From a virus: a stretch of 64,000 bases of DNA. Under the pieces are notes generated by a model. That model made no database searches. It had not been told where the DNA came from and saw only the letters and a program-made list of their open reading frames with translations. Position numbers and translations under genes: made by a program. Where the stretch lies: positions 1 to 64,000 of the IMG/VR virus record IMGVR_UViG_3300046522_000512; one strand, 5' to 3'. Below are positions 1,338 through 50,539 of this stretch, one piece after another; the first letter of the stretch is position 1, and each line of letters opens with the position of its first letter.

Positions 1338-1392
1338 CCGTCCCTCCCTCCCGTGTCCCACAGGCCGCCGGGATGTCCGGGGGCAGAGCGGG

Positions 1393-1420
1393 AGAGTGGG
1401 AGGAAGGAGGGGTTAGCGTC
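1393..1420 (-). promoter_or_regulatory. Putative phage late promoter (copy 1)
   Basis: GACGCTAAC-N13-CACTCT upstream of the fibre gene. Confidence 0.7.
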
Positions 1421-1429
1421 TCGGGCAGG

Positions 1430-24718: not shown

Positions 24719-24963
24719 CGGCGATCCCGGCAAGGTTCGCTGCCCACGTCGGCGAGACCATCAAGAACCTGCCCGGCCCTGACAAGGAGGAGCTGCACAC
24801 CGCGATCCTGCGGGCGTGTGCGGACCCGATGTCGTGGCCACAGGCCGACAAATACGAGATGGACGAGACGGTGCGCGTCATCACGACGCGCACCGCCATC
24901 GTCCACTACGTGATCCTTCTCGGCGCGGACCCTCACCTGTGGCTCTTCGCCATCACGGTCTGA
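24715..24963 (+). CDS. RelE/ParE-fold toxin-like protein
   Basis: GTGA-coupled, 82 aa. ARFAAHVGETIKNLP..K..L...I...CADP followed by three beta strands. Confidence 0.6.
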   Translation: MTAIPARFAAHVGETIKNLPGPDKEELHTAILRACADPMSWPQADKYEMDETVRVITTRTAIVHYVILLGADPHLWLFAITV

Positions 24964-25197: not shown

Positions 25198-28100
25198 TCA
25201 CCGAGTGGCGAGCAGTCCCAGAAGGAACGCCCGCAGGTCGTCATCCCTGTACCAGTCGCCCGAGAACATCGTCGCGAGCCCGCGAGCCACGATCTGGTCA
25301 TCGGTGACGTCCTCCGCCCGGCCGCCGAACAGCCGCTCCAGCAGCGCATCCAGCGTGCTGCGCCGGGCCCCGGGCCGTCCGGTGTGGGTCCGGGTGAACC
25401 CGAACACCTCCTGCGCGGCCAGCAGATCCGGGTAAGAGCGCTGAAGGTGAGCCACCAGAGCGTTCACCGCAGTGCCGCGGCCGCCGTCGCCGAGGTCAGC
25501 GACCGTGGCCGTACCGGAGTCGGCGTCGTACGAGCCCGCGTCACCATCGACCGCGGTCACGAACCGTGCCGTGCGGTCCGCGAGCCACTCCCGCGGCACG
25601 TAGCCCGCAGCATCGGCCAGCGCTCGCGCCGCCGCCGGGTCGCTGCTGTGGCTCAGCGTCAGCCGGTTCCTGCCACCGGGGCCCATCTCTCGGACCTGCG
25701 CGAGGGTGTCACGCACCGCGCCGGGCAGCGCGGCCGTGTACGCCTGGTGCAGCCGGTCGGCTTCCTGCCGGGCGTGCTGCGCTTCCACCTGCGCCGCGGC
25801 GATCTCCGGACCGAGGTCCGGGGCGCCCTGGCCGGCCGCCACCGCCCGCAGGTTCCGAACACGGGCCTCCGCCCGGTCCTGGTAGCGGCGGGCGTGCCGC
25901 ACCGTGCCGTGCGGGTCGTCGCCGAGCTCCGGCGCGGCCGCCATCAGCCGTGCCACGACATCGGCGTCCACGTCCGTACCGGCCGCGCGCACCGCGGCGA
26001 GATGCCGCAGGGCGTGCCGCCCGGGTCCGCGGTCCGCAGCCCGGTCCATCGTCCAGCCCGTGCCGTCCTGCACGCCGGGGAGCTGACCCGCGGCGAGCGA
26101 GGAGCGGGTGGCCAGCCGGTACCAGCGACGGCGCCGGGAGACCTGACCGAAGTGGCCCGGGGCGGGCAGCAGCCGCGCCCAGTGCGCCACCTGGTCGGCC
26201 AGCGACATGCCGTCCCCGTGCCGCGGCAGGGAGCGGGCAGCGGCCGCGATACGGCGCAGGCGCCGAGTCTCCGGCCACGATCGCACCCGCCGCACCAGAC
26301 CCTTGCGGAACCGGTTGATGGCCTTGAACGGGTACGCCACCGCGGCGGCGAGACCCTTGAGGAACGCGGCCACCAGCTCCACGACCCGGCGGGCGATCTG
26401 CACGAGCGCCGCCGTGATGCGGGCGAGCATTCCCGGCCGCTCGCCTTCCGGCAGCTGGGCCGCAATGCGCTGCGCTGCACCGTCACGGCTGTCAGCCATG
26501 CGCTGCGCGAGCCGGGCGACGATCGCCGCGCGCCGCTCCGGAGTCAGCAGCCCCGTATCGGCATCCCGGAGCGCCTCGCCCACCGCACCATCGACGTGGC
26601 CCTGCACCTCGTCGTCGACTGGGGAACCCGCACCCGCGTCGGGCTCGGGAGTGGCCTCACCATCGGCGCTGCCGTCCCCGTCGCCCACACCGGTGTCGAG
26701 GTCGGGCTCATCCGACTCCGACCGGTTGCGCAGCGACTCCGGGATCAGCCGCAGCAGGTCCGCAGCACGCGCCGCGGTGTCCTCGGGCGACTCCCCGTCC
26801 AGCGGCTCCAGGTCGTCGAGCGTCTGCACCGCAGCCTGCACCGCGTCGATCCGCGAGCGCATCGCCATCCGCCGCAGCTCGGCGAGCAGCCGCTCCCGCT
26901 CGTCGCCGGTGATACCCGACCCGTCGACCACCGCCTGCGCGTCCCTTTGCACGCGCCGCATCGCCGACCGGAGCGCGCCCGCCGTGACCTTCGCGGCGAT
27001 CTGCTCCCGGAGCTGGTGAATGCTGCCCGGGGTCTGAGTCCCTTCCACCGCGGCGTCGACCACGGCCCGCGCGACCAAGTCGCCGTAATCGGCCGTGAAC
27101 GCCGCCGTGTCCAGGCCCGCGTTCGGGTCCCGAGCTTCGGCGTCATCGTCGGCCGGAACCTGCGGCTCGGGCAGTTGGTACAGCGGGTCACCGGCGGCCA
27201 TGGTCCGCTCGGAACGCTGCCCGTTCCCGTCTTCCACCGTCAGGACCCGCAAGCCGCCCGGGGCGTCCTGGACGTCCGTGACGCGGTACGAGGCCATCTC
27301 GTCGGGGTTCGTCTCGTCCGGCAGGGCGATGGTGTCACCGACACCGACCGAGCCGACCGTGCCCGGCTCCGGCCGCCCCGCCGGCGCGCTGTCCGCATCC
27401 GGGTTCGGGGCGTCGGCCTCGCCGGTCAGGCGGCGCTGGTTCGCGGCGAACCAGGCAGCCGCGGGCCGTTCCCGGTCCATGACGCTCACCGACTCGGCAA
27501 GGGATCCGCCGAGGATCTGGAACGTCCTGGTGGTGGACGGCCTACCGGCCAGGCCTTCGAGCTCGACCGTGACCTGCTTGTCGCCGACGCTGACGGACTG
27601 CACCTTGCGGGTGAACCAGTCGCTGCCGTTGGCGCCGGTGCCGAACACCAGGTGATCGCCCGGCTTCAGCTCGGTCGCCTTCACGATGCGGCGGTCTGCC
27701 TGATCGGCGACCCCACCGCCTTCAAGGGCGCTGTCGTAGGGCAGGGGCCGGAACGGGGCGCGGGCGCCCACGCTGTCACTGATGAACCGGCCGTCAGCGT
27801 TGGCCAGGAGGAGATTGACTGTCTTCCCGTCCTCGCTTCGGATCCCTTCCACGACCAGCAGACGGGAGGGCTCCCCGTTGACCGGCGCCACGATCACATC
27901 ACCGGTACTCAGGTAGCGCGCTTCGGTGGTCATACCGCCGTCGTCGTTGCTCGTCCCGGTCTGCCCGGCCGCCTGGTCGAGGCGGTCAGCGGCCCGCTTG
28001 GCTGCGCGGCCCTCCGCCGTCGATGGGTCGGCGTTCTGGCGAAGGCCTTCAGCTATCGCGGCCGCCTGCTCGGGGGTGACGGGCAGGTCCCGGGCGATCC

Positions 28101-31100
28101 GGGCCGCGCCCTGCTGCGCCTCGGGGGCGTCGCCGGGGGCGGTGCCCCGGTCGGCGACCGCGTCGCGCTCTTCCGGTGCAAGCTCCGGGTCCACGGTCGG
28201 CCCGGTCACGGGCTCCACCGTCGGGGCCGGCTCGCGGCTCGTGATCGGCTCCTTGCGCCGCTGGGCGGCCGGTGTGCCGTCCTGCCCGTTGTTGTCGGTG
28301 TCGCCGATGACGCGCAGGTCCGTGACGGGCATGGGCTTCATGCCCTCCGTGGTGGCGACGGTCGCGGTGTCGCCGTCCAGTTCCTCCACGGTGCCGAGCA
28401 TGTTGCCGTCCCGGTCGCTGACCCAGTTGCCGACGTTCACGCGGTGCCCGTCCGTCGTCCAGCCGGACGGGCGCGCCGCGCCGCCGTCGATGACGTTGAG
28501 GGTGCTCGGCTCGTGCGCGTCGTCGGTGCGGTCGTCGCCGAACTGCACCCGCACACCGGCGGAGTTCGCCCCGACCACGACGCCTTCGCGGCCGTCGTCG
28601 TCGGTCACGACCGACCCGGGGAACAGGCCGTTGCCGCCGCCGTCGGTCGCCACCCGGTCGGCAACCCGGCCGGTGAGGACATCGGAGTCCGCGCCGGTCT
28701 GCACCGTGGTGGCTTCGTCGCCGATCTCGCGAGTGGCGCGGGCCGCCGTGGCGTCCGGCTTGACCCACACCGACTCGCGCTTGGTCGAGCCGTCCGGGGT
28801 CTCGGCGATCAGCACGCGGACCATGTCCTGAACGCGCCGGGCCCGGACCGTCGGAACCTCCGTGGGCCCGTCCATGACGTACCCGGCCAGGGTCCGCGCG
28901 GTGCCGCCCTTGGTGATGCCGTCGATCCGCACCACGTCACCCTGGCGGATGTCGGAGACCTTGACCCACTCGGCGGGCCGCCCGTGCACAGGCTCGGGCA
29001 CGGCCGGGCGCTCCGGCTCCGCTTTGTCCGCAGACGGCTTCGGGGTCTCCTCGGCCGGGGCGGGCCGCTCCTTGGCCGGCGCCGGGGTCTTCGCCGCCGG
29101 GGCGGGTCGGTCCTCGGCCGGAGCCGGGGCCGGGGTCTCCTTGGCCGGAGCCGGGGCCGGGGTCTCCTTGGCCGGAGCCGGGGCCGGGGTCTCCTTGGCC
29201 GGGGCGGGCCGTTCCTCGGCCGGGACCGGGGCCGGGGCCGGAGCCGGGGTGTTGGGGGCGGCCGCTGGGCGCTCCTCCGCCGGGGCCGGGGTGTTGTCGC
29301 CGGAGGACGTGGCCCGCTGGGGGGCGACCTCGGGGGCCTCGCCGACCTGACGGCCGTACCTGTACTCCTCCACCGGCAGGTTGACGTCGTCCGCGGACAT
29401 CAGGCGCTGCGCGTTGTCCCCGACGGGGATGACGAACGTGTCCCCGGCCAGCTGGTGGGCGCCCACCACACTGGAGGCGACGTGGATGCGCACAGCCTTC
29501 TGCCGCTTCTTGTTGATGGTGATCGAGGCCGGACGGGGCTCACCCACCACGTAGCCGGTCCTGCGGGTAGTCGCTCCCGGGTAGCGGTTGGTGATCCGGC
29601 CGTCGAGGTCCACGATGTCGCCCGCTCGGAGGTCGGTGACGGGGACGCTCTCCGCCCTGTCCTTGCCGCCCTCGTCCACAAGGTCGTCAAGGAACTGCTT
29701 GGAGGCCCGAGCCTTGCTGATCTCGTGGTGCATGGCTCGCGGGTCCTCGGGTCGCAGCACGTCCAGGTAGTCACGGATCTCGTCGGCCAGCCAGCCGGGG
29801 CCGAGGATGTGCTTGTGCTTCAAATCGGCAGGCTGGTACTTGTAGTGAGTGGCGTCGAGCCACCGCAGCTCGTCGTGCAGGTGGTCCAGGTCGTCCGCCA
29901 CGTTCCCGCTGATCGTCTCGCCACGGCCGAGGGCGTCGGCCAGCGCGCGAATCTTCCGGTAGCGCTCCATGTCCGCCGGGTTGTCGTTCAGCGACTCCAG
30001 GCCGCGCAGCCCCTCCTCCTCGGGCGGGAACCCGAGGCTGAGGTTCGAACCCCTGAAGTCCCAAGCGATGTCGGGGTGGACGATGCTCAGGTCGGGCTCG
30101 CCCTGTTCCATGTCCCGCAGTACGAGATGGGCGATGGCCGCATCCCGGGTGGAGAAAGTGCCGTTGTGGTAATGGTTGCCGAGGGGCATCTCGCCCTCCC
30201 ACCGCTCCTCGGGCGGTGTCATGTAGAAGCCGGTGGTGTGCGGTGCGCGCACGCTGCCGATCAGCCGGCCGTTGCGCCAGACCTCTTCGCGGCCATGGTC
30301 CGAAACGAGCTTCGGGGAGGGCGTGAACCCCTGCGCAGCGAGTTCCTGTATGCGCTCGGGTGATCCGAACAGGGCGCGCTCACCCTCTTCGCTGATGATG
30401 CCGTTCTCGCCGGTCTGGTACTGCCTCAGCTCGTCGTGCGTCGGGATGCGCCGACCGTCCACGGTGCCCGCACGGCGGCCCTCTCCATGTGCGGCGTTGA
30501 TGCCGTACTGGGACGTGGGCGCCGGGGCATCACCCGTGGGGGCCGCGCCCTGACCGTCGCCCGCGCCTGGCGCGTCGGAGCCGCCCGCGGAAGGCGCGTT
30601 CGAGGATGAGGCGCCGTCTTGGCCGCCGACCGGCGTCGCACCGCCCTCGCGCGGCACGTCCGCCCCGCCGGCCGCAGGGGCGTCGGTGTCAGGGAGGCGT
30701 GCGACCTTGTCGTCCGCGAGGATCGTCACGCCGTTGCGGACGTTCGGCTTGGCGTCGGGGTTGTCGCTCAGGTGCAGGCGCCAGGCCTTCAGGCGCTCCC
30801 CGTCGCGGGTCGCGGTGACACTGCGGGCCGGGGCGAGGAGGAAGCCCTCCCGGGTCACCTTGCTTCCGGCGGTGTTCTGCGTCTCGACGCGCACTCGGTC
30901 ACCGCGCTGCGGCTCGTTTGGGTTGACGATCTCGGCGCGCGGCTCGTCGCTGATGTCCGGGACGGACGGCGTCCGCTCCGGCCGCTGCGGCGTGCTCTCC
31001 GCCGGCTCGGGGACGTCGGTCCGGTACTGCACATCAGCGCCCTCGGGGATGGCCACGATGTCGCTCGGGTGGAAGCGCCGAGCCTGGTTCTTGACCTTCC

Positions 31101-43100: not shown

Positions 43101-46100
43101 TCGCGGCCTTCTTCACCAGGCCCAGGCGCCGCAGCTCCATGACGCCCATGGCCATCTCGGCCGTTTTGCCTGCACCGACCTCGTGCGCCAGGAGCACGGA
43201 CGGCTCATTGACCATCCGGGCGACGGCGGCGTGCTGGTGGGGGTGCGGGTCGAACCACTCGACCAGGCCGGGGATGGTGCGGCGCTGCCCGTCGTAGGAG
43301 CGCGGCGCCATCGAGTTGAAGTTGTCGTTGTAGAAGCGCTTGTGCTTCTCGGCGCGGTCGGGGTCGGCCCACAGCCAGTCCGTGAACGCCTCTCGCAGGA
43401 GGGTGGCCTTGGCCTGTGCGTCCTCGGTGGCGTCCTTGTCGTAGACGCTCTTGGCGTTCTCGCCGTGGCCTTCCTTCTTGGTGACGACGATCTTGCGGTT
43501 GGTGAGGATCGCCTCGGCGATCTCCAGAGCGGTGTAGCCCTTCGCGCTCCACGTGTGTGCGGTGCGCTCCGCGATGCTCTTCTTCGCCCCGTCGGGGGCG
43601 TCGACCGCCCACAGGGCGCCGCCCTGCCAAGACACCGTGATCCGCTGGTCGCCGAGGGTCTCGCGGAGGAACTGTTCGACCGGCTCACGGCCGATCCAGG
43701 AAGCGCCCATCGGGGCGGCGATCTCGCCGGTGGACAGATCCGGCGGGACGACCCGCTCAAGGTGCTCGACGTTCAGGTCGTAACGGCTGTCGTCTGCCGC
43801 GGCGCGGCGGGCCTCATCGAGCTTCGTGCGGACGTTCCCCGACAGGTAGTCCGCGGCCGTGACGAGCTCGCCGTCCGGGGCCTGGAACGCCATCGGGTAC
43901 TCGACGCCGGTGTCCGAGTCGACGGAACGAGCCGTCAGCAGTCGCGCGATGGCAGTGTCTGCGTCGGTGCGCATGACGCGGGCGAGGCCGTCGGCGGTCA
44001 GCCGGCCGTCGGTCTCCAGCACGATCGCAAGAGCGTCCTGCGGGTCGTCCGCGTACTTCGCGATCTCCCGGTACGTGCCAAGCCGCTTGCTGAAGATCGG
44101 CGCCTTGGTGGTCTTGCGGGTGGTGTCGTCGAACTCGTCGAGCGGCGTGATGTTCGACATCGTCGGGTCGTTGGTGAACAGGCCACCGCGCGCCGCCTTC
44201 TTGCGGTACGTCTTCTCGACCTTCTCCCCGGTGTCGGGGTCGATGGCGGTGCGCTTGGACCACGTGAACCGGTTGATGGCGCCGAACTTGGAGTGGTAGG
44301 CGTCGTACTGCTTGTTGAGCGCCTCCCGGAGTCGCTCGATCAGGGACTCGTCGGCGTCCTTGCGGTTCTCCTCCGCAAGGAGGGACTGGAACGTGTCGCG
44401 GATCGCGAGGAGCTGCCGGGCCTCGTTCGCCTGCGTCTTGAAGACGGGGAAGGGGTGCACCATGCCGTCGCGGACCTGCGTGAAGGACCCGTCCGGTTCG
44501 GCCTGCACGTGCCCGTCGACCCGGGAGGAGCCGGGCGGCAGAAGCGTGACCTTGCTGCGGCCCTCCGTGTCGGGCTTGTAGGCGAGGCCTGCCGCCTTCG
44601 CCTCCTCGACGGTCCGCTTCAAGGCCCGTTCCAGGTTGGCGATGGTCTTGCCGTCGCCGTCCACGCGCAGCTCGTTGTCCCGGTGCATGCCGTGGCCGAC
44701 CGCGAGCTTGCCGAGGATCTGCTGAGGGTTGTCGTGGAAGTAGCTGTTGTAGAAGACAGGCGGCTCGACCTGATCCGGCGGCGTGCCCGGCTTGGGCGGC
44801 GTCTGCCCGGGAAGGGCGTACGTGGGCAGGGAGTGCACCCACATCGGCGGGTCGTTCTGCGTCCGCTCCGACGGCCGCTTGATCTCACCCTTGCGGTTGC
44901 GGCCCGATGTGAACGACTTGCTCTTGTCGCGGCGCCGGAAGATCAGAAGGTCCGTCATCACCGACGTGCCCGCGGTGCGCTGGTGCGCGCCGGACGGCAG
45001 ACGGATCGCGCCGACCAGCTCGCCCTTCTCCGCCATCTCCATACGGGCGGCCTCGCTGCGCCCGCCATGGCCGTCCATCGTCAGCGACGACGTCACGACC
45101 GCGACCAGGCCGCCACCACGGGTCAAGTCCAGGGACTTGAGGATGAAATGGTTGTGGATCGAGTGGCCACCCTTGTTGTGCACCAGGTCGGGCACCTTGT
45201 ACCGGCCGAATGGCACATTGCCGACCGCCGCATCGAAGGTGCCGTTGGGGGCGCGGGTGTCACCGAACGACTCGTGCCGGACCTCGGCGTGCGGGTAGAG
45301 GGCCTTCGCGATGCCCGCGGTGATCGAGTCGACCTCGACACCGGTCATGTGCGTGCCGTCGGGCGCGTAGCCGATGAAGTTGCCGACGCCGGATCCGGGC
45401 TCCAGCACACTGCCGGCGTCGAACCCGAGGTCGGTCAGGGCCGCCCACATCTGCTGCACGATCTGCGGGTCGGTGTAGTGCGCGTTCAGCGTGTTCGCGC
45501 TCGCGTCGGCCCACTCGGCATCGGACAGCAGCTCACGCAGCCGCTTCGCGAGCGGCTGGAACTGCGCATCCGGCTGCGGCTTGAAGATCTGGGGGACCGC
45601 ACCCCACCCGGAGTACCGGGCGAGTTCCTGCTGCTCGGCCCCGGTCGCGGGACGGTTCTCGTCCTGGAGGCGGCGCAGGATCTCGATGGCGGCGATGTTC
45701 GCCTTGGCCCGGTTGACCGGGCTCGACGGAACGAGAGTCTTCCCGTCGGCAGGGGGCTCGTAGGCCGGAGCAGTGGCCTGCTGCTCCGGCGTACCGAACG
45801 CTACGGGAGCTGAGGCAGCTCCACCCGCGGCATGTCCTTCGTCTCCGTTCCCGGATCCTTCGGCATCCCGTACACCATGTCGTGCAGCACCCGTTCCCGG
45901 GCCCGCATCCGGACCGACTTCAGCTCGCGAGCCCGCGCCACCGCGTCCGTGCCCTCCTGCAGCGGAGGAGCCCACTCCTCCGTCAGTTCCTCGATCTGCT
46001 GCACGATCTCGTCCGACCGCTCCCGGGCGAACTCCTCGAACGCCTTGTCCGTCGGGAACCGATCCACTTCCAGCGGCCGGTACGTCTTCCAGAACGTCCG

Positions 46101-49100
46101 AACGAGATCCACGTACGACACTGTCATTGCTCCTCTTGTGCTGTTCGGACAGGGCCTGTCGAGCGACGCTCACGTTCTCACGCGCCAGGCGCAGGAACTC
46201 GGCCGCATGGGCATGGTTGGCGCCGCCGCGGCCGCGCAGGGCGCGCTGCATTCCGTCGAGGGCGCCTTGGAACTGCTGGATGGCTTCCGACGGCGTGATG
46301 TCACCGCGCTTCAGCGCGTCCACGGCGTCACCGGCAGGCGCCGCCAGGTCGTGCGCGGCGGGCGCTCCACGCAGCTCGGTCAGACTGTTGATGACCGGGC
46401 CGAGCTGCTGCTCCGCCACATCGAGCGCTTCCACGATGTGGTTGCCCGCGGCGGTGGTAGCCGCCATGTCGGCCAGGCTCGGGCCCTGGTCGGCGTTGGG
46501 GGCCGGCTGCGGGGCCGCCTCGGGGGCCGGGGCGGGGGCGTGGTCGGTGTCGTGCTCGCGCACCAGGTCCGCGAGGGCCGCCTCCTCGGTGAGGAACGGC
46601 TTCTTGGAGCTGTAGCGGGTGCCGTGACCGAGCCGGTTCCACGTCCAGCGACCCGCAGAGCCCTGGAGCGTGGCGTCGTCCTGGTTGCCGCCATCGACGG
46701 CGGCGGGGCGGTGGCCCGACTCATTGTGCGCGCCGAGCTGGACGCGGGAGAGCTGCTGTGCGTACGCCTGTCCGTCGCGGCGCTGGGCCTCGGCGAGGAT
46801 CGCCGTCTTCTCAGCCTGGGCGCGGGCCCTCTTCGCCTGGTCGCCGGAGGACAGGGTGTCAGACCAATCCTGGTCGGCCTTCGCAAAGGCGGCGTCGAGG
46901 TCCTCGCGCGACACCTGCGACCAATCCCGCTGCTCGGGCTTCGCCTGCGGGGCGTCGGGGTTCGGGGTGTTGGTGCGGTCGCCCGCGTACGGGGTGCCGT
47001 CGGGGCGGGTGATGTCCTTCAGCGCGTGGGAACGCGTGCCCCGCTCGGCGCGCACGAGCACAGAGCCGGAGTCGCGGTTTACGGCCATGACCGAGCCGAC
47101 ACCGTCAGGCGAGTTGACCTCGTCGCCGTTGTTGGGGAAGTCGCCTTCCGGCGTGGCCTGCGGGGCGCTCGGCGCGGCCGCGGCCGGGGTAGCCGCAGGG
47201 GCCGGGGCGGGCTTGTTCTGCTGCTCCTGCCGCTTGCGGTACTCGTTCGCGGCGTGGGACTCCGGGGCGCCGTGGGCGATGTCCCACTGGCCCCGCTGGT
47301 CGTCCATCTGGTTGCCGAAGGCCCGGCTCCACACCCCGACCCGGTGCCGCTCGCGGGGGCCCAGCTTCGGATCCCACCAGTCGACTTCCTGGTCCGGGTT
47401 GGACGACTCGCGCACCCCGCGGCCGACCTGCATGGCGAACTGGCTGGCATCCTCCCAGGACTTGAAGCCCTGCCCTGCGCCGCCGGACCAGCCGAGGGCT
47501 CTGCCGTCGTAGGCGCGGTGCACATCGAACCGGTGGGGGCCGCGCTGGACGATCGCGAAGCCGAAGTGGTTGGCCATGGTGACGTTCCACTTGGGGTTGC
47601 CCGCCATGGCGCGCACCCCATCGCTGTACACGCGATCCAGGCCCGGGGCGCCGCCGTTCTTCCAGTACTCGCGCAGCTCACCGGTGTTGCCGGGCTTACG
47701 GAAGCCGACCTTGTCGTCGCCGTTGTTGCCGCTCGGTCCGACGTGGCCGACGGCGATGTTCTGCCGGGGGATGCCAGAGGTGTCGGCGATGGACTGCGCG
47801 GCCTGCACGAGCGGGTTCGGCCGCTCGGTCGGGGCCGCGGGAGCCGCGGGAACGGCCGGGGCCGGGGCCGGCGGGAGGACGGCGGGGGTCGCGGGAGCGG
47901 GCGTGTTCCTCGCGGCCGCGCCCTCACGCTTCTTCGCGGCCTTGTCCGCGAATACCTTCTTCGCCTCCACGCTGGCCTGGCGCACCATCTCCTGGCCCTC
48001 GGGAGACTCCAGGCGCTGGTGATAGCCGGGGCTGTCCCAGTCGAACGGCTTGTCGCCGAGCTGGGCGGCCTCCAGGCGGTTCGCGAAGTCGACGGCTTCG
48101 CCCTTGCGCTCCGACATGGCCAGGCGGACGCCGCTGCCGGAGACGATGACCGCGTATCCGGTCTTGCGCTGGCCGTTCTTCTCCACGGTCATCTTGGCGA
48201 TGACGAACCGGCCGCCGCGGGAGAGCTGCGGCCTGTCGAGCTTGGCGAACAGTGCGGCGGTTTCCCGCTGGTGCCGCTCCTGCTGGGCCTTGTCCTGCGT
48301 GTACGGCTCCAGATTGCCCTTCCGCCAGTAGGCCTGAAGCTCGTCGAGGTTCTTGAAGAGTTTGCCGCCCAGGGCGCTGGCCGGTCTGGCTGCCTGCGGC
48401 CGCATGGGCATGCTCGTGTTGCCTTCACCCGGGGGCAGGCCTCCGCGAGAGCCGGGGCCCTTCTGGGGGCCGTCGGAGCGCCAGGCCCGGGGAACGAGCG
48501 GCTGACTCTTCGGGCGGTTCTTCCTCGGCGCGGGGATCGGCTCGTTGCCGTGACTGGTGAAGCGCTCGTGAGCGAGGCGCAGCGCGTCACGCAGGTTGGC
48601 GGCGTACCGGGCAACCTCGTCCTGGCCGTCGTTGTGGGCGATCTCCGACAGCTGGTTGGCCTCGTCCGCGAGCCAAGACAGGCGTTCCACGTCGTCCGGG
48701 TTGAGCTGGTCGTTCTTGTCGTCCCGGACGTCGAATCCGGTACCGGCGTCGGCCAGGCTGTCGTACAGCTCGTCGGCTTTGGCGTTGTGCCAGTTCGCCG
48801 GCCAGACGCCTTCCAGGTCCCCGAAGTACTCCTCACTCAAGTCGCGCACGGCGCGCCGGGCGTGGCTGGTGTCCCAGAACTGGTGGAAGTGGTCGTCTAC
48901 CGGGGGGCCGGCGGCGCGCAGCGCATCACCGTTGCCCATGACGTGCCGCTCGTGGGGGGTGTCGTCCGCGTTCCTGTCGATGGGCAGCAGGTCGGGGAAG
49001 CTCGGCATGGCGACGTTGCCGCGCCGCCGGGGCGGCAGAGGGTCGCCGTCGTTGTCGTGGATGTTCGTCATGACGCGGCCCTGCGGGACGAGCGGCTGAT

Positions 49101-49629
49101 CGTCGTCGTGGTTCGGGTCATCGGGGCCGGCGCCGAGATCCTGGCCCTCGATGTCCTGGCCGATCGGCTTGCCCTGGTCGTCGCGCTCGTGGACGGTGTC
49201 CGGGGTCTGGCCGTTGTCACCGCGGTCGTTGGCGGGGTGGTCGGCGCCCTCGGCTGTGTCGTCCTTCGCCGGGTCGTGCGGGCCGTGGCCAAGCCCGCGG
49301 TTCTCATCGCCGTAGCGCCGCTCGTCCTCGTCGCGGACCTTGGACTTGCTCTTGGTCGGCGCGGAGCCGTCCGGGCGGCTGACCATGGTCAAGCGGGCGG
49401 CGTTGATGCGGGAACGCTGGTGGGTGGCCAGGTTCTCCACGAGGACGTCGCGGCCACCGAGCGCGCGCAGGACGCGGGCCATGCCGCCGCCCCACATGCG
49501 GGCGATACCGCCCGTTTCCACGAACCTGCCCTTGGAGTCACGGGGGTGCAGATCCGGGTTCCACGTGCGGCGCAGCCTCTTGGTTTCGAGGCTGGCGAGG
49601 ATGCGGTCTACGGCGGTGGTGATCGGCAT
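25198..49629 (-). CDS. Giant (~8,143 aa) DarB-like polyvalent protein: N6-adenine MTase, SF2 helicase, UvrD-like SF1 helicase, many SH3/Tudor-like repeats and a degenerate zincin-like C-terminus
   Basis: Uninterrupted ORF with high GC3. MTase VLEPGSGVGNF/VGNVPFG (~45200-45410). SF2 AHEVGAGKT, VDEAH, GTGTNVQ, PWRP..QRNGRVIRQGN (~41500-43200). SF1 ALAGTGKS, DEAQD, VGDSNQAIYGFRGA, HKSKGLE, YVAVTRA (~36080-37780). N-terminal WNPDLHPRDSKGRF. Start at ATG 49629 inferred from promoter spacing. Confidence 0.93.
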   Translation of the reverse strand: MPITTAVDRILASLETKRLRRTWNPDLHPRDSKGRFVETGGIARMWGGGMARVLRALGGRDVLVENLATHQRSRINAARLTMVSRPDGSAPTKSKSKVRDEDERRYGDENRGLGHGPHDPAKDDTAEGADHPANDRGDNGQTPDTVHERDDQGKPIGQDIEGQDLGAGPDDPNHDDDQPLVPQGRVMTNIHDNDGDPLPPRRRGNVAMPSFPDLLPIDRNADDTPHERHVMGNGDALRAAGPPVDDHFHQFWDTSHARRAVRDLSEEYFGDLEGVWPANWHNAKADELYDSLADAGTGFDVRDDKNDQLNPDDVERLSWLADEANQLSEIAHNDGQDEVARYAANLRDALRLAHERFTSHGNEPIPAPRKNRPKSQPLVPRAWRSDGPQKGPGSRGGLPPGEGNTSMPMRPQAARPASALGGKLFKNLDELQAYWRKGNLEPYTQDKAQQERHQRETAALFAKLDRPQLSRGGRFVIAKMTVEKNGQRKTGYAVIVSGSGVRLAMSERKGEAVDFANRLEAAQLGDKPFDWDSPGYHQRLESPEGQEMVRQASVEAKKVFADKAAKKREGAAARNTPAPATPAVLPPAPAPAVPAAPAAPTERPNPLVQAAQSIADTSGIPRQNIAVGHVGPSGNNGDDKVGFRKPGNTGELREYWKNGGAPGLDRVYSDGVRAMAGNPKWNVTMANHFGFAIVQRGPHRFDVHRAYDGRALGWSGGAGQGFKSWEDASQFAMQVGRGVRESSNPDQEVDWWDPKLGPRERHRVGVWSRAFGNQMDDQRGQWDIAHGAPESHAANEYRKRQEQQNKPAPAPAATPAAAAPSAPQATPEGDFPNNGDEVNSPDGVGSVMAVNRDSGSVLVRAERGTRSHALKDITRPDGTPYAGDRTNTPNPDAPQAKPEQRDWSQVSREDLDAAFAKADQDWSDTLSSGDQAKRARAQAEKTAILAEAQRRDGQAYAQQLSRVQLGAHNESGHRPAAVDGGNQDDATLQGSAGRWTWNRLGHGTRYSSKKPFLTEEAALADLVREHDTDHAPAPAPEAAPQPAPNADQGPSLADMAATTAAGNHIVEALDVAEQQLGPVINSLTELRGAPAAHDLAAPAGDAVDALKRGDITPSEAIQQFQGALDGMQRALRGRGGANHAHAAEFLRLARENVSVARQALSEQHKRSNDSVVRGSRSDVLEDVPAAGSGSVPDGQGVRGVRPGAVGRDRAADRGTDGGVGSSAAGGHGRGGAGSRAEVGPDAGPGTGAARHGVRDAEGSGNGDEGHAAGGAASAPVAFGTPEQQATAPAYEPPADGKTLVPSSPVNRAKANIAAIEILRRLQDENRPATGAEQQELARYSGWGAVPQIFKPQPDAQFQPLAKRLRELLSDAEWADASANTLNAHYTDPQIVQQMWAALTDLGFDAGSVLEPGSGVGNFIGYAPDGTHMTGVEVDSITAGIAKALYPHAEVRHESFGDTRAPNGTFDAAVGNVPFGRYKVPDLVHNKGGHSIHNHFILKSLDLTRGGGLVAVVTSSLTMDGHGGRSEAARMEMAEKGELVGAIRLPSGAHQRTAGTSVMTDLLIFRRRDKSKSFTSGRNRKGEIKRPSERTQNDPPMWVHSLPTYALPGQTPPKPGTPPDQVEPPVFYNSYFHDNPQQILGKLAVGHGMHRDNELRVDGDGKTIANLERALKRTVEEAKAAGLAYKPDTEGRSKVTLLPPGSSRVDGHVQAEPDGSFTQVRDGMVHPFPVFKTQANEARQLLAIRDTFQSLLAEENRKDADESLIERLREALNKQYDAYHSKFGAINRFTWSKRTAIDPDTGEKVEKTYRKKAARGGLFTNDPTMSNITPLDEFDDTTRKTTKAPIFSKRLGTYREIAKYADDPQDALAIVLETDGRLTADGLARVMRTDADTAIARLLTARSVDSDTGVEYPMAFQAPDGELVTAADYLSGNVRTKLDEARRAAADDSRYDLNVEHLERVVPPDLSTGEIAAPMGASWIGREPVEQFLRETLGDQRITVSWQGGALWAVDAPDGAKKSIAERTAHTWSAKGYTALEIAEAILTNRKIVVTKKEGHGENAKSVYDKDATEDAQAKATLLREAFTDWLWADPDRAEKHKRFYNDNFNSMAPRSYDGQRRTIPGLVEWFDPHPHQHAAVARMVNEPSVLLAHEVGAGKTAEMAMGVMELRRLGLVKKAAMVVPGHMLEQFRHEFAEIFPESVANNRILTASSEDLAGKGRREFIARAAAGDYDAIILTQTAFESIQMRPEIQEDYIGRRVERLREKILRQKDADGEGNDTRLVKRMEASLKSLEEKLDKKLSGLKDAAGLHFEDMGVDYLVVDEAHMYKNLDTPSSVAAIDGSNRASDLEMKLEWLRKRSDTGRVVTFATATPVANSIAEVHTMMRYLRPDLLEELGMLDFDDFASTFAQMVSAVERSPDGSYKEKTRLAAFQNVPELLRLWRSFADVKTAEDLDLPVPGIVGGKAVTITMPMSPAQEEYEVLLRARAARLEGGNVDPKEDNHLKLLGDGRMAALDPRLLDPSLGGGNKLPTVADNVVRIYGETKDAVFPTSKTDATPHDTPGGLQIVFLDLGTPKDPGRSKKRKKKAGSGTDADEMDASLTDDGSESLSRDDEETYTDFSTYDELKSLLIARGIPAEQIRFIHEAKDDAAKARLFNDARSGKISVLLGSTAKMGTGTNVQLRAVALHHVDAPWRPADVDQRNGRVIRQGNANDEVAIFQYATERSTDAKFWEAIARKAKFIRALMRGSLSERVVEDIGPVNFDADEVSALTAGDPHLIAQAQLKPLVNRLRGRFNAYRRSQEGFKEAIRDSAQAEEWTKQYVAQLQQAVEKRKPTRGDDFNATIGTTDFEGGDARDDARNALNTALRAVYADGMRRPYDENAAGIPIGRVGGLEVTARFVRTRSIGNQWYNTVRVDLPQVPGAWQDYEDHELIDHDGKPRTLPLSRIENSIANIDERIKRAEHRRADKKRAAEQAAGRIGKPFELATVFEESTRQLDLLNEIMRLKAQPTVTEEDTAKRNKQIAALDAELRAMSNDQEDVLAQVAARDVNLVPKTPAPPAISQDDKGRVKWIWPTTEARDAARAKKLAAKREAFLARTSSSAQAAPAQPDALGMNNADLKEETDTLAERIAKGEASDKDVVRHAGLEREQQRREKNRAARAAAEQSSTPSGQNSGETVTLDPQKVRADLAEISPAADRTGAEPEGQDAPKETPASQPEAEPSLTTAQARALESALNSGLGPDGQQIEAHPNVIRRLLRLGYADERSKPRVGGGSIKYYVMTPEGERRARALRDEREQARTARLAALDAADEAPQERNSQTPQASGTPGTGPQPPSPRPAPQAPAAPRPAPKPADTVRPFANEREWRAGITGVEGAQGQVTSAAETTWGRDMPAPARSLRDNVFQAIAAQESGDTEDTAASLAGAREDAQRLRNRLTDTDRQGMEAPLDNFMRVTDDYLARHAVTVEKRRREDAQRDRIEREAQEQFRRSLTGTPAPAPETPAKGSDAPSTGRAWQDGDFQPGDTVAFSNRNAMNMQQSGEFVRSANQDTAVLRGRNGAEREVPYIDIMGRTRDGVFEENPPAAGTPTTPLPQPTPSADDGKQFESGDKVHYWYDESGPAQRKLGTVVETTDDGVVVDGPAGDRETIPFNRVTKAPERQRSADAPQPAPASSDLPMSALFAKNKATSRHALDSLKAGYQEQFGDEPRDRVGQLSNELFTFLDQQWGEAAGGVFGPASETALHLADALHDQEMTPEERSGRFGAQVADVQRELRHRRDVIARQQGAPDSAGKAPRPSAPSDARPVPATPPADMDGDQIGEEIDTLDEQIAPLQDATDSVDLAYRLRLEQRRFELEEEERRRWSPTPEYGEDGKVIPRKRGDVIRDRLAGYGLNDAETTGLVHRVEDLPAAKAGGYSDEEWARIDTAAAANEAYPPTEEQGIIIEGAARRGLNMAVMALAGTGKSSTLKMLSHRMPGKKIVYLAFNRSVANEAREAQARGEYAKNLTASTANGYAAKVADKRLNNRLPNHKAGGFKKLSAQQIADRMRWYDTVKAGDRDLAPGGAATVAELMIKTWAKSSDAEMGPQHITGAKTAQEARDLFDAVKPLADRMWANLSDPTKGDAGQDLPMDFDYIVKMWAVGGFKIDADTLYWDEAQDVNPVMEGVVRAAIDQGVQVVAVGDSNQAIYGFRGASDALSKLPVDARATLTQSFRFGPAVANVGNRFLRLLGTRMRLKGFDRKDSRLGNIKPGDETMVIARTNAGVALAAVEALAAGRTIAVSGGVKDLQEFVTAARALANGERTSHAELARFNGKSYEDILDEVNSDPELQQLKSLFALLDKHPDEIDKLMESGAQAADTENVGGRVWVTLDWNDPKVDQLKRWLGDAKTNGVGKLLYDRESRRYYYEPGKRTESFTKNGRTINYQVDNKLSLEDAKAKIDAHLAKLYPQEDTGGGRLVDEKKPHDLLVTTAHKSKGLESEKVRIADDFRGPEYDDNGHIKWDTVPEDEDLRVAYVAVTRATDVLDAGSLGWVFEAVNDGDPTQPPTGEYRRDWVLDDFKPGDRINFQEEDGTPQVGEVARLDGPGLIARYDVDGQQREQYIGTAQVQRRNGQDRPQLPVASEDELNQAVAEGRYPEASGGAPAKLDAGKVRDELAALKNDQPSPETTEPRKEANTGSPAAPDPATGIITGDQVPPGPDATAADKEAYRRRFDIRYQVGYYVDYRNDDGETVTARVVNTRGNPILRDDAGHEFRADPNWYADHFIAVRKDDGSALPRPAWADTLPDGFRAVPPNEIQPGHVIREGSSSDKLWGSRFVMAKTVDEDGRTTLYTAQLATQGGGGLGLDPRQLVVLDETEESRQLAEEALHRRDVKESAKLQGLTLPTELPAGPNRQAQEGSTAREWHNGDTAVTPNGEGRVILAEDGKVVVLDGGGAPRTYEPRQLSMPGEARTAEHNAPTAQEAARGEKRQQDLESAQTPEGLGLFYGARLANLDLEEGHGQVLDEDGNVVGWIRRRGTVWHGQDARGGQTGGGTAQSASDPLYGPREAAQAVDSNRRDNGMRVALKDTAWRHLRPEEGRDTVQYSELSDAQREEFFKLAKEWAKSSDHELSEAAKHWGQGGLNYRQMNRLAEEATATADSVDASTPEGRRRQAVLQRLADKIRAQASRAWHSWQTMPPPGEPDVPRDVDAPDWVPYGHRETSKTDAPVKLDAAQVRTELADLNGSDSSPAADGDPGKASPEPEADGETIDADQARINDYVRVEVSDTLDRTRVHEGYLLANPRKGKGHRPRHGDFDAWILYIGNGPNQSPGRGNQVDIPADQKIQRLPAPEAPALGPVDIDSVKPGQYIRATVPDADGNEVTREGYVVSAAARRDGPRRDDPVMSWQVHIADTPHAVHAWDDVIEVPAGHEVERMSPPGPVPELEIPDVPGLDLSEYTRPDQKEVDEYRKWAGVWANPAPDGPRNALLDRVKNMPGPASRPLSPKAAPRWIGDAGDAFPLDQFDENTRHLLAQYDGDQRDFLAGHAASMREATQRLAGEFRAASREIMIPRIATRSGMKDAAEKLGALWAGDSERSRQVVLDQIAAAVADADRHGLTEQQVKDFLVGVAGGDDPEQRANGLTGAFPEVGRSLSSASDDVKAYYAGFHAWRGQNDDQSFSGYHHYNNRRSALGGEYLPVADPRTGDGQFIVGEAELPDGMRWTRLQNLKPGDLYRPARGYYAKDNRFDGLDAAHVVVNLHADGKEGRPRTTSLSTGSHTEHPGDWVVHLTAPEPALRKKANAKLRDKWVKKENEDDARKWEAAQAISRRPDGEAADVASLQEGERLRVRGSNEFIGGIYVAEGDLLEPPERAQMWRGGSQVDGWRLLLSTHGHAGDHIYVADGESDEWAERLSRDTNAPETGASGTNAPETGESQTNEPGTDEPKPDESGDGEPKPDESENNDDRDRRRRRRNQLGNGAPNGGGGGLPGGLGMGLPNFPDSSTPSTGSGRGRGDGSGRTPAGTGQADNANPAAGLPDEFAALRQRYDGDMVPASEIQVGDWVHIVGADQMYNEPKHLVGRVLHTRQFNGGVRIEVESRDPLKGGDAVQRESAALYDGELAERLPEGNPGREDTSDLKRRMETWEERASASRVPVPEGWQAVDGSRIQPRIGDRFRIVARQDGKRTQHMNVVVERSNDWQGDGYWKVKNQARRFHPSDIVAIPEGADVQYRTDVPEPAESTPQRPERTPSVPDISDEPRAEIVNPNEPQRGDRVRVETQNTAGSKVTREGFLLAPARSVTATRDGERLKAWRLHLSDNPDAKPNVRNGVTILADDKVARLPDTDAPAAGGADVPREGGATPVGGQDGASSSNAPSAGGSDAPGAGDGQGAAPTGDAPAPTSQYGINAAHGEGRRAGTVDGRRIPTHDELRQYQTGENGIISEEGERALFGSPERIQELAAQGFTPSPKLVSDHGREEVWRNGRLIGSVRAPHTTGFYMTPPEERWEGEMPLGNHYHNGTFSTRDAAIAHLVLRDMEQGEPDLSIVHPDIAWDFRGSNLSLGFPPEEEGLRGLESLNDNPADMERYRKIRALADALGRGETISGNVADDLDHLHDELRWLDATHYKYQPADLKHKHILGPGWLADEIRDYLDVLRPEDPRAMHHEISKARASKQFLDDLVDEGGKDRAESVPVTDLRAGDIVDLDGRITNRYPGATTRRTGYVVGEPRPASITINKKRQKAVRIHVASSVVGAHQLAGDTFVIPVGDNAQRLMSADDVNLPVEEYRYGRQVGEAPEVAPQRATSSGDNTPAPAEERPAAAPNTPAPAPAPVPAEERPAPAKETPAPAPAKETPAPAPAKETPAPAPAEDRPAPAAKTPAPAKERPAPAEETPKPSADKAEPERPAVPEPVHGRPAEWVKVSDIRQGDVVRIDGITKGGTARTLAGYVMDGPTEVPTVRARRVQDMVRVLIAETPDGSTKRESVWVKPDATAARATREIGDEATTVQTGADSDVLTGRVADRVATDGGGNGLFPGSVVTDDDGREGVVVGANSAGVRVQFGDDRTDDAHEPSTLNVIDGGAARPSGWTTDGHRVNVGNWVSDRDGNMLGTVEELDGDTATVATTEGMKPMPVTDLRVIGDTDNNGQDGTPAAQRRKEPITSREPAPTVEPVTGPTVDPELAPEERDAVADRGTAPGDAPEAQQGAARIARDLPVTPEQAAAIAEGLRQNADPSTAEGRAAKRAADRLDQAAGQTGTSNDDGGMTTEARYLSTGDVIVAPVNGEPSRLLVVEGIRSEDGKTVNLLLANADGRFISDSVGARAPFRPLPYDSALEGGGVADQADRRIVKATELKPGDHLVFGTGANGSDWFTRKVQSVSVGDKQVTVELEGLAGRPSTTRTFQILGGSLAESVSVMDRERPAAAWFAANQRRLTGEADAPNPDADSAPAGRPEPGTVGSVGVGDTIALPDETNPDEMASYRVTDVQDAPGGLRVLTVEDGNGQRSERTMAAGDPLYQLPEPQVPADDDAEARDPNAGLDTAAFTADYGDLVARAVVDAAVEGTQTPGSIHQLREQIAAKVTAGALRSAMRRVQRDAQAVVDGSGITGDERERLLAELRRMAMRSRIDAVQAAVQTLDDLEPLDGESPEDTAARAADLLRLIPESLRNRSESDEPDLDTGVGDGDGSADGEATPEPDAGAGSPVDDEVQGHVDGAVGEALRDADTGLLTPERRAAIVARLAQRMADSRDGAAQRIAAQLPEGERPGMLARITAALVQIARRVVELVAAFLKGLAAAVAYPFKAINRFRKGLVRRVRSWPETRRLRRIAAAARSLPRHGDGMSLADQVAHWARLLPAPGHFGQVSRRRRWYRLATRSSLAAGQLPGVQDGTGWTMDRAADRGPGRHALRHLAAVRAAGTDVDADVVARLMAAAPELGDDPHGTVRHARRYQDRAEARVRNLRAVAAGQGAPDLGPEIAAAQVEAQHARQEADRLHQAYTAALPGAVRDTLAQVREMGPGGRNRLTLSHSSDPAAARALADAAGYVPREWLADRTARFVTAVDGDAGSYDADSGTATVADLGDGGRGTAVNALVAHLQRSYPDLLAAQEVFGFTRTHTGRPGARRSTLDALLERLFGGRAEDVTDDQIVARGLATMFSGDWYRDDDLRAFLLGLLATR
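29040..29290. repeat. Pro/Ala linker with 27-bp tandem repeats (PAPAPAKET)
   Basis: GGGGTCTCCTTGGCCGGAGCCGGGGCC repeated about three times, plus degenerate flanking copies. Confidence 0.85.
45801..46127 (-). CDS. TnpV-like protein, nested out of frame in the giant ORF
   Basis: 108 aa with AAGAGGAG before the ATG. High GC3 in this frame, while the giant frame has low GC3 and low complexity here. FWKTYRP...RARELKSVRMRARERVLHDMVY resembles TnpV-family proteins. Confidence 0.8.
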   Translation of the reverse strand: MTVSYVDLVRTFWKTYRPLEVDRFPTDKAFEEFARERSDEIVQQIEELTEEWAPPLQEGTDAVARARELKSVRMRARERVLHDMVYGMPKDPGTETKDMPRVELPQLP

Positions 49630-49636
49630 GCGGCGG

Positions 49637-49664
49637 ACCATGCACACCGGGGATGGTTAACGTC
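49637..49664 (-). promoter_or_regulatory. Putative late promoter (copy 12, giant gene)
   Basis: GACGTTAAC-N13-CATGGT, 7 nt before ATG 49629. Confidence 0.72.
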
Positions 49665-49700
49665 GCGGGCTCGAATTTTGCGGCCCGCGACGCGGCCGGA

Positions 49701-49916
49701 CTACATCGTCTCCGTCAGGATGTGGAGGAGGAACCAGCCCGAGAAGCCCGTCCAGGCGAGGGTGAAGGCGGCTCTTCCGAGCTTCGAGGTACGGACGTGG
49801 AAGAGCCGTCGGACGTTCTCGCTGAGGGTGTCCTCGTCCTTGCGGTTGATGAGCGCCCACGTCTCGTAGAGGGCGAACGCTGAGGTCCATGCAGACCAGA
49901 TGAGCCAACTGTTCAT
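49701..49916 (-). CDS. Small two-TM membrane protein
   Basis: ATGA-coupled, 71 aa: MNSWLIWSAWTSAFALYETWAL...DTLSENVRRLF...FTLAWTGFSGWFLLHIL. Confidence 0.8.
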   Translation of the reverse strand: MNSWLIWSAWTSAFALYETWALINRKDEDTLSENVRRLFHVRTSKLGRAAFTLAWTGFSGWFLLHILTETM

Positions 49917-50539
49917 GACGTCGTCTCCATTGCTGAGGAGGGCAGGGGGCGGGGGCCGGTGCCGTCGTACGGGGCGGCGAGACCGGCATTGATCAGGGCG
50001 CGATTGAGCTCGTGGCCGTAGGGGGTCGCGATGGTGGCGAGGTAGCGGCCGTACTTCTCGCGGCGCTCGGTGTCGACGGTGAACGCGGGCCCGTGCGCGG
50101 CGACCCACTCGCGGACCCAGTCGGCGGCGTGCTTCCCGGCGTCGGTGTTCTTCTCGGCGGTGTTGATGCCGAGGAGCCGGACGCGTTCGAAGGCGCGGAG
50201 CTCGAACCCGAGGTCGATGGCGAGGTCGAGGGTGTCTCCGTCGATGACGCGGGTGATGCTCGCGCTGTAGGTGTGCGGGGCCGGGGCGTCGGTCAGGGTC
50301 GCGAGGTAGCGGCCCTTGGTGTCGCGGGTGGTCTGGACGGTGAGCGGCCCGCCGCTGGCCTTCAGGTGTGCGCGGGCCCACGCGGCGGCCTTCTTCGGGT
50401 CGTCGGTGGTCGTGTCCGCGGTCGCCACGGCGGTCAGGCGGACGCGTTGGGCCAGGTGCAGGTCGAACCCGAGGTCGATGTCGAGGTCGAGGGCGCCCGC
50501 GCGGCCGATGCTGAGGAGGGTGGTGCGGTAGGTGTGCAT
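49913..50539 (-). CDS. Thermonuclease (SNase) family protein with duplicated domain
   Basis: ATG 50539 overlaps the portal stop. The second copy has RVIDGDT, RVRLLGINTAE, KYGRYLA and LNRALINAGLA. The first copy is degenerate. Confidence 0.88.
   Translation of the reverse strand: MHTYRTTLLSIGRAGALDLDIDLGFDLHLAQRVRLTAVATADTTTDDPKKAAAWARAHLKASGGPLTVQTTRDTKGRYLATLTDAPAPHTYSASITRVIDGDTLDLAIDLGFELRAFERVRLLGINTAEKNTDAGKHAADWVREWVAAHGPAFTVDTERREKYGRYLATIATPYGHELNRALINAGLAAPYDGTGPRPLPSSAMETTS

Follow-up and report, generated by a model that had tools for sequence, protein, structure and literature searches.

The DNA analysed here, referred to as the window, is the first 64 kb (positions 1 to 64,000) of the 84.8-kb IMG/VR virus record IMGVR_UViG_3300046522_000512, for which CheckV gives a completeness of 64%. 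Within its head genes, the minus strand carries one giant open reading frame (ORF) of 8,149 codons, with GTG 49647 as its first codon and its stop at 25198. Translated from ATG 49641, it gives one 0.88-MDa beads-on-a-string chain (8,147 amino acids (aa), 882 kDa, isoelectric point 5.4), which comprises a DarB-like methylase-helicase core, a UvrD-like helicase, many small barrel modules and two conserved ends. We regard it as probable that this polyvalent protein is taken up by the procapsid and reaches the cell together with the DNA, with a role in anti-restriction or establishment.

A single contiguous gene of 8,149 codons

A long ORF is weak proof of a gene in GC-rich DNA. The G+C content of the window is about 70%, and the strand antisense to the giant gene contains an ORF of 3,837 codons (3,837 aa). 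The G+C content at the codon positions was therefore examined. At the third codon position (GC3) it was 0.75-0.96 in all 250-codon blocks of the giant frame, with the exception of one overprinted stretch of about 110 codons, and this pattern is the signature of genuine coding sequence. Contigs from a different rhizosphere sample tile the region from 27 to 47 kb with few substitutions and no insertions or deletions (indels). They include contigs of 13,284 nucleotides (nt) (31840-45123) and 9,024 nt (from 45103 onward) and break only at short repeats. One relative is 84% identical across aa 3-3288 in a single alignment, and a closed circular plasmid of 132,597 bp carries a homologue of 5,247 aa in the same synteny. 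The giant ORF has no in-frame stop, so that a ribosome coming from the 5' end must read through, making it one translational unit. We concluded that the giant ORF is real and constitutes a single contiguous gene, as the original prediction had claimed from the intact frame.

The predicted extent of this gene was correct for its end at 25198 and for its being a single ORF. The proposed start, ATG 49629, corresponds to residue 7, and ATG 49641, at residue 3, appears likelier. The latter was favoured because TAACC is found 13 nt before it, as at a second site (81559), and because the annotated start of a close homologue aligns there.

Enzymatic modules and constant ends

The profile phrog_10089 matched three tiles of the DarB-like core (E 2.8e-101, 9e-183 and 1.4e-112; profile positions 1451-3244). 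In tblastn searches the core was 31-33% identical over 84-90% (about 1,700 aa) to annotated DarB-like proteins of proteobacterial phages. The N6-adenine methyltransferase (MTase) part contains motif I (LEPGSGVGNF, aa 1415) and motif IV (NVPF, aa 1477), and its match to the Eco57I-type Pfam family reached 19.7 bits, under the cut-off of 25.3. The SNF2-type ATPase, a member of helicase superfamily 2 (SF2), has the motifs GAGKT (aa 2158), DEAH (aa 2326) and QRNGRVIR (QxxGRxxR, aa 2704), and SNF2-rel_dom, ResIII and Helicase_C each exceeded their Pfam cut-off. The profile match across both parts confirmed the predicted DarB architecture of an N6-adenine MTase and an SF2 helicase. The dyad of DarB-type methylase and SNF2 ATPase, which makes up about 23% of the chain, is apparently active.

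The second helicase had been predicted to be UvrD-like and to belong to superfamily 1 (SF1). This assignment was supported by a PF00580 match above its cut-off (35.6 bits, cut-off 23) and by the motifs GTGKS (aa 3962), DEAQD (aa 4155) and VTRA (aa 4516). The phrog_1967 match had an E value of 2.3e-45, and UvrD_C, with 25.4 bits, remained just under its cut-off of 25.6. The Pfam searches of the giant protein detected neither an LPD nor an MPTase domain. Megablast of the whole giant gene against isolated phages gave zero matches, and no actinophage was among the best 25 of the 139 phage records that matched the DarB-like core.

Directly before the methylase, the coding signature passes to another frame. 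Between nt 46170 and 45800 the GC3 of the giant frame is about 0.40, and its product (aa ~1174-1283) is a low-complexity sequence of Gly, Arg, Ala and Asp. In the same stretch the +1 frame has a GC3 of 0.88 and an intact ORF of 108 aa with AGGAG 5 nt before its ATG. Of the 32 related viral loci with retrieved DNA that reaches the methylase, 16 have this nested ORF, with identities as low as about 30%. It was always in the +1 frame, with its stop 30-105 nt before the methylase homology. Four distinct relatives all kept the Shine-Dalgarno sequence, and at least three of them an ATG or GTG start. The product matches the TnpV Pfam family weakly (E 0.014), and its language-model neighbours are actinobacterial 'TnpV family' proteins of about 100 aa (0.91). 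The linker before the methylase is the overprinted read-through of a small gene that would have arrived with the DarB cassette. The conserved nested gene would be a clean example of overprinting that results from a gene fusion.

More than 100 relatives of 3.0-7.9k aa were found, almost always on 114-138 kb contigs of Streptomyces and Kitasatospora isolates. Eight of them are deposited as plasmids, and one of the elements is the closed circle mentioned above. An isolated relative is Streptomyces phage Gilgamesh (MN234216, 129 kb, host S. lividans), which can be cultured. Its gp48 (4,624 aa, 'hypothetical protein') has 57% of the length of the giant protein and shares the N-domain (46% identity) and the C-domain (42% identity). 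It is preceded by gp46, a 'portal and MuF-like fusion protein', and gp47, a 'membrane protein', and the order portal-MuF, small membrane protein, giant, protease/hydrolase and capsid is the same in both elements. The contig sizes, the plasmids and Gilgamesh together indicate that the window therefore derives from a phage-plasmid of the same group. The DarB-like core recurs in nearly 200 database proteins of 4.5-7.9k aa, and PF28553, PF28554 and PF28555 are the Pfam families listed for relatives. With 8,147 aa the giant protein is the longest among the relatives listed in three family searches (protein lengths up to 14,261 residues).

The two ends are the most constant parts of these proteins. 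Residues 6889-7125 and 7424-8149 were kept in all 47 large relatives (4.5-7.2k aa), and the N-terminal ~170 aa in 44-45 of them. The DarB dyad was present in 42 and the UvrD domain in 15 of the same 47 proteins, the remainder being mosaic. Among proteins shorter than 4,481 aa, the C-terminal domain identified 62 further relatives, of which the full-length ones have 3.0-4.5k aa, the shorter matches resembling contig-end fragments; most of the 62 have no recognised domain. The full-length relatives listed for the C-domain all fall between 3.0 and 7.2k aa. We concluded that the family is defined by constant ends, an N-terminal one of about 170 aa and a C-terminal one of about 1,250 aa, with exchangeable cargo in the middle. 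Gilgamesh gp48 seems to be devoid of the DarB dyad and of UvrD, judged by its likeness to relatives of about 4.6k aa without Pfam domains. Since many relatives, apparently including gp48, do not contain the methylase-helicase, a DarB-like function cannot be the core role of the family: the methylase-helicase is its cargo and not its essence.

The N-terminal domain contains HPRDSKGRF at aa 34-42. The HPRDxxGRF motif, already recognised in the original prediction, is conserved in 46 of 48 relatives. A search with the domain returned 143 cluster representatives, in which it is mostly N-terminal, in proteins of 86-7,217 aa. It also heads proteins with Zeta-toxin or RelA/SpoT domains, which are effector-type cargo. 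Comparison of its profile with the PDB sequences yielded nothing meaningful. On the distant IMG/VR contigs L090, L092 and L096-L098, a bare HPRDxxGRF follows a MuF-type motif of the same strand at a distance of 2-3 kb, and several database proteins have 3-7 internal copies. HPRDxxGRF may be a general short linear motif associated with MuF and portal proteins.

Internal repeats were found by tiling, while BLASTP of the whole protein against itself gave only the self-match. Seven copies of a ~100-aa β module alternate, from aa 5230 to 6975, with helical or unclassified domains and Pro/Ala-rich linkers. The module was modelled once (copy 7) as a β domain with a predicted local distance difference test score (pLDDT) of 73-85 and without a match to a named fold. 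One of the Pro/Ala-rich linkers (28980-29310, minus strand; aa ~6780-6870) consists of tandem (K/E)ETPAPAPA repeats. Independent contigs break within it at 29119-29172, and the number of repeats may therefore vary among strains.

The C-terminal region was covered by two AlphaFold models built from alignments of 19-20 relatives, one for aa 6876-7492 (pLDDT 65) and one for aa 7421-8149 (pLDDT 79). They showed six small all-β domains on low-confidence linkers, followed by helical bundles and an α/β end domain. Five of the modelled barrels (aa 7000-7492) are additional to the seven-module set and matched EF-P, KOW or Tudor domains. Residues 7421-7492 superimposed on domain I of EF-P/eIF5A with Z 8.9-10 and a root-mean-square deviation of 1.0-1.5 Å over 58-62 residues, and aa ~7000-7055 on the KOW domain of DSIF/Spt5 with Z 7.3-8.5. 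The top Foldseek matches of the whole model were to multi-KOW Spt5 (E 3e-6 to 1e-3). Short SH3-like copies of a 'module B' further upstream (aa 3520, 3604, 4556 and 4901) were assigned by resemblance only, and a hidden Markov model (HMM) of this module recruited nothing past its hand-picked seeds. The over a dozen barrel-like modules of the original prediction are thus a fair count, with 12 supported by HMM or model and several more by resemblance only.

A zincin-like tail, also predicted, was not confirmed. HExxH or HxxEH does not occur anywhere in the 8,149 residues, and MPTase-PolyVal (PF18818) had no match in six frames. No Pfam or NCBIfam match was found for the C-terminal tail, and neither the C-domain nor its profile had a meaningful sequence match in the PDB. 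With the 729-aa C-terminal model, Foldseek and VIA gave matches to the barrel and to generic helical bundles only; no zincin was among these fold matches, which barely probed the last domain. The candidate helix of the tail has a single invariant His (H647 of the 729-aa segment, in an alignment of 20 relatives). All ESM-feature neighbours of the tail with a Pfam family are of zincin type (ATLF, M90 and Mx1; 0.84-0.85), which is a weak hint and serves as a lead only. The tail is at most a catalytically dead zincin-like fold.

Gene neighbourhood and links to the capsid

The giant gene lies between the portal and the protease gene only in a broad sense, as two small genes separate it from the former and about 2 kb of small genes from the latter. 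Downstream on the minus strand it is followed by a 75-aa ORF, an opposite-strand gene pair, a 190-aa ORF, the protease and the capsid gene. The coordinates of all features are given in Table 1. The start of the SNase-like gene overlaps the portal stop (TGATG), and this gene is absent from the matching position in Gilgamesh. A separate tape measure protein of 1,712 aa is encoded further downstream.

Table 1. Features of the giant gene and of the surrounding head genes (positions in the window; residues numbered from GTG 49647)
Feature	Position	Strand	Remarks
Portal fused to MuF-like C-terminal domain	50539..52998	-	Upstream partner gene; gp46 is the annotated counterpart in Gilgamesh
SNase-like nuclease gene, 208 aa	49913..50539	-	PF00565 E 2.6e-9; phrog_452 E 6e-44
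71-aa hydrophobic protein gene	49701..49916	-	Directly upstream of giant gene; gp47 of Gilgamesh (membrane protein) equally placed
Promoter-like intergenic motif GAGCCCGnGACGnTAACC	49655..49672	-	
Giant gene	25198..49647	-	8,149 codons
N-terminal 'address' domain, aa ~18-100	49348..49596	-	W-x4-HPRDxxGRFIETG, then ~50-aa barrel-like stretch
Nested +1-frame gene, 108 aa, weakly TnpV-like	45801..46127	-	Own AGGAG and ATG, inside giant ORF, just before methylase
DarB-like core, aa ~1176-3044	40516..46122	-	Putative N6-adenine MTase and SNF2-type SF2 ATPase
Protease-tail-like linker motif 1, aa 3181-3197	40057..40107	-	Core LDPQKVRADLA
UvrD/Rep-like SF1 helicase, aa ~3935-4530	36058..37845	-	PF00580, phrog_1967, intact motifs
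Protease-tail-like linker motif 2, aa 4643-4659	35671..35721	-	Core LDAGKVRDELA
Protease-tail-like linker motif 3, aa 5207-5223	33979..34029	-	Core LDAAQVRTELA
Seven-module region	28723..33960	-	~100-aa β module; starts at aa 5230, 5330, 5795, 6011, 6222, 6649, 6876
Conserved C-terminal chassis, aa 6889-8149	25201..28983	-	KOW/Tudor/EF-P-like barrels, then helical bundles, then terminal α/β domain
Prohead serine protease (Peptidase_S78) fused to 2H phosphoesterase	21141..23123	-	Tail motif formed by last ~17 aa (nt 21144-21200)
HK97-type capsid protein	19670-20974	-	Downstream of protease

The opposite-strand pair consists of overlapping small genes for 85 and 82 aa (24461-24963, plus strand) just past the giant gene. 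The first is weakly similar to CopG antitoxins (E 0.005), and plasmid NZ_CP107821 has a similar opposite-strand pair at the same place. The pair may be a toxin-antitoxin module within the head gene block.

The giant gene has its own copy of a promoter-like motif, in agreement with the original prediction: the core GACGNTAACC is found 8 nt upstream of the GTG. Four exact copies of this core occur in the window (0.17 expected), all of them on the minus strand and upstream of genes. Sites of the GAGCCCGnGACGnTAACC type precede the portal, giant, protease and capsid genes and further minus-strand genes, and the motif is a putative late promoter. A 9-nt inverted repeat, GTCGCGGGC ... GCCCGCGAC, with a loop of 12 nt (49673-49703, minus strand) lies between the upstream stop and the giant gene and extends with its 3' arm into the motif. 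The sites of the motif at 53400 and 81559 are likewise flanked by comparable inverted repeats; the motif may therefore be a regulator site, instead of or besides a promoter. When searched for as a repeated element, the upstream hairpin gave no match.

The association of the giant gene with the portal extends beyond the window. Of 53 IMG/VR loci with a full N-domain, 51 encode a portal-MuF homologue on the same strand, at 0.1-3 kb upstream. In 48 of the 53 the ORF continues beyond the fetched DNA, typically for more than 1,700 codons.

A further link concerns the end of the prohead protease, whose C-terminus reads ...LDPTEVKAALAALAI. When the 84.8-kb record was translated in six frames, exactly four sites fitted the pattern LD[PA]..V[RK]..LA, against 0 in 2,000 shuffles. 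One site is the C-terminal end of the protease; the others belong to disordered linkers of the giant protein, at aa 3184, 4646 and 5210. Conservation of the protease tail extends over 15 relatives, as far as Kitasatospora and Gilgamesh. The capsid-entry signal of the HK97 protease was reportedly mapped to the C-terminal region of that protease by Duda, Oh and Hendrix in 2013. A segment of the HK97 gp4 protease is able to carry green fluorescent protein into capsids (PMC11626933). As a universal packaging signal of the family, the tail copies were considered and dropped, since only about 5 of 48 relatives had them according to a motif HMM. Since they are not universal, they are a lineage addition rather than a general address.

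From its size, the giant protein had been predicted to be processed. The tetrapeptide pattern E-x-K-[A/S] occurs eight times in the protease (0.2 expected), brackets its 2H domain and marks the boundary of the capsid delta-domain (TEVK|SLG). This distribution makes it a plausible recognition site of the S78 protease, a rule deduced from these sequences. In the giant protein the pattern was found twice (3.7 expected), both times inside the folded DarB-like core and never in a linker. The putative site is thus not enriched, and the idea of processing is not supported. The protease tail contains EVKA, and the corresponding residues in the three copies of the giant protein are KVRA, KVRD and QVRT; tail copies of six relatives have R, Q, D or E in place of that K. 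The loss of K would fit tethering without cutting.

Weighing the functional readings

The giant protein can be compared with several known systems. Like P1 DarB and the members of PHROG 10089 (for example of Erwinia phage PEp14, Sinorhizobium phage PBC5 and Ralstonia phages), it has an MTase followed by SNF2 in one chain, and DarB-like phage proteins are likewise phage-encoded and often very large. It differs from them by its constant ends, the SF1 helicase, about 20 barrel modules and NVPF as motif IV; moreover, no DarA/Hdf-type helper was detected, in a search in which the control was silent. Very large capsid proteins are known from phage N4, whose virion RNA polymerase is carried in the capsid and ejected and has separate encapsidation and exit regions around an enzymatic centre. 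The giant protein contains no RNA polymerase, and its packaging is a prediction.

Polyvalent proteins were described by Iyer et al. (2017), who also reported the MTase-SNF2 dyad, with P1 DarB as its type, and gigantic Streptomyces proteins in which UvrD co-occurs with it (PMC5512222). The paper describes many conflict-type domains in chains of more than 2,000 aa, the dyad with UvrD in actinomycetes, and a location beside portal-terminase packaging genes with predicted delivery together with the DNA. The giant protein is comparable in these respects: the chain combines MTase, SNF2, UvrD and many binding-type barrels, with portal-MuF upstream and protease and capsid downstream. The UvrD giants of actinomycetes are placed by that source in conjugation-like contexts, whereas the context here is plainly a phage head module. 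A plasmid giant of Streptomyces viridifaciens (OJH72069.1, 12,242 aa) has SNF2 and UvrD (PMC5512222); it is not among the listed relatives of the C-terminal half of the giant protein. MuF- or portal-linked proteins carry variable effector domains (PMC5512222), and here the MuF domain is on the portal and not on the giant protein. We conclude that the giant protein is a new, very large member of the polyvalent class already described. In text searches of PMC5512222, no mention was found of TnpV, SH3, constant ends, an HPRD N-domain, protease-tail mimics or a nested gene. The giant-protein family did not appear in a limited literature search that covered Gilgamesh, phage-plasmids of Streptomyces and DarB in Streptomyces. 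Within these limits, the constant-ends architecture, the pairing with portal-MuF, the protease-tail mimics and the nested gene are apparently undescribed.

The original prediction had seen in the giant gene an injected DarB-type multi-enzyme. A DarB-type polyvalent protein in the head-morphogenesis block is indeed what was found, and the portal-MuF, the late-type motif and the tail copies favour a virion-carried protein. We infer that it is packaged and injected, and that it has an anti-restriction role. The constant ends would serve incorporation into the head and exit from it, in partnership with the portal-MuF protein, and the three tail-like linker motifs would tether the chain inside the procapsid at the same site as the protease, which probably leaves it uncut. 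After ejection, the methylase-translocase dyad would protect the entering DNA in cis from restriction, in the manner of P1 DarB. The UvrD-like helicase may aid the establishment or repair of the incoming genome, which would then persist as a circular plasmid. This reading is favoured because the position in the head module is conserved in Gilgamesh and in the closed plasmid, because the portal, giant, protease and capsid genes have the promoter-like motif in common, because a portal-MuF gene precedes the N-domain in 51 of 53 loci, and because the N-domain also heads effector-type cargo. It is also favoured because the tail motif is found four times in the record and is conserved on the protease of 15 relatives, because a segment of the HK97 protease carries a foreign protein into capsids, and because P1 DarB, itself a component of the head, protects DNA in cis (PMC5512222).

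Several observations weigh against it. Motif IV of the MTase is NVPF and not the canonical NPPF/Y; GNVPFG is conserved in 39 of the 40 relatives that have motif IV. The tail copies were recovered in only about 5 of 48 relatives by the motif HMM and in 13 of 47 by a loose regular expression, and Gilgamesh gp48 yielded none. Since an enzyme is not recognisable in many relatives, anti-restriction cannot be the core role of the family. No RNA run is among the sequencing runs listed. Streptomyces giants with MTase, SNF2 and UvrD occur in conjugation-like contexts (PMC5512222). A DarA_N family search found nothing, its control being likewise silent. Finally, if the protein is packaged, it has to be explained how a 0.88-MDa chain is loaded, stays uncut beside an active prohead protease and threads a siphovirus tail.

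It is rather unlikely that the giant protein is unpackaged, only encoded among late genes, and acts inside the cell that produces the phage or harbours it as a lysogen. There it would, for example, take part in replication or repair, maintain the plasmid, methylate progeny DNA or exclude rival elements. The element does live as a plasmid of 114-138 kb, UvrD- and SNF2-type motors have cellular repair roles, and Iyer et al. tie similar Streptomyces giants to contexts of plasmid transfer (PMC5512222). However, the position between portal-MuF and protease/capsid is conserved together with the same upstream motif, the protein has three copies of the protease tail, and the DarB-like dyads of other phages are found in virion gene blocks.

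Also unlikely is a chiefly structural role, in which the giant protein would be an internal head or 'ejectosome' component whose conserved ends and string of barrels form or line the exit path of the DNA through the thick Gram-positive envelope. The enzymes would then be optional, and the essential role of the family would be infectivity and not counter-defence. The universal ends fit such a role, as does the lack of the dyad in 5 of the 47 large relatives and in most relatives of 3.0-4.5k aa, apparently including Gilgamesh gp48; so does the tight linkage to portal-MuF. The most hydrophobic 19-mer of the whole chain (aa 7755-7773) lies within the conserved C-domain, but with a Kyte-Doolittle value of 1.64 it is borderline. 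Likewise, the C-terminal model gave a weak helical match to the phage ejectosome chain 8vb2_I (Z 8.0), which is within the noise of helical bundles. Against such a role, a separate tape measure protein is present, and the N-domain also heads toxin-type cargo, as is typical of effectors.

Very improbable, and already largely refuted, is an assembly chimera or a set of genes whose frames are open by chance at 70% G+C: high-GC DNA does yield long spurious ORFs such as the antisense one, and the codon bias of the giant frame is wrong along one stretch of about 110 codons, but it is of coding type everywhere else, the 84% identical relative aligns in one piece, the independent contigs are free of indels, the same single gene is present in a closed plasmid and an isolated phage, and a ribosome from the 5' end is obliged to read through.

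Beyond the preferred reading of a packaged polyvalent protein, we tentatively propose a modular platform for capsid cargo. Its ends would be fixed in more than 100 phage-plasmids and its cassettes swapped, the tail mimics would tether the chain without its being cut, and the DarB cassette would have been captured by read-through of a TnpV-like gene that survives and is still translated. The design of constant ends and a swappable middle, together with the protease-tail mimics, suggests that cargo is addressed to HK97-type capsids by a natural rule, which would be useful for loading proteins into capsids. With Gilgamesh on S. lividans as a culturable relative and closed plasmid-prophages in strain collections, these ideas can be tested at the bench.

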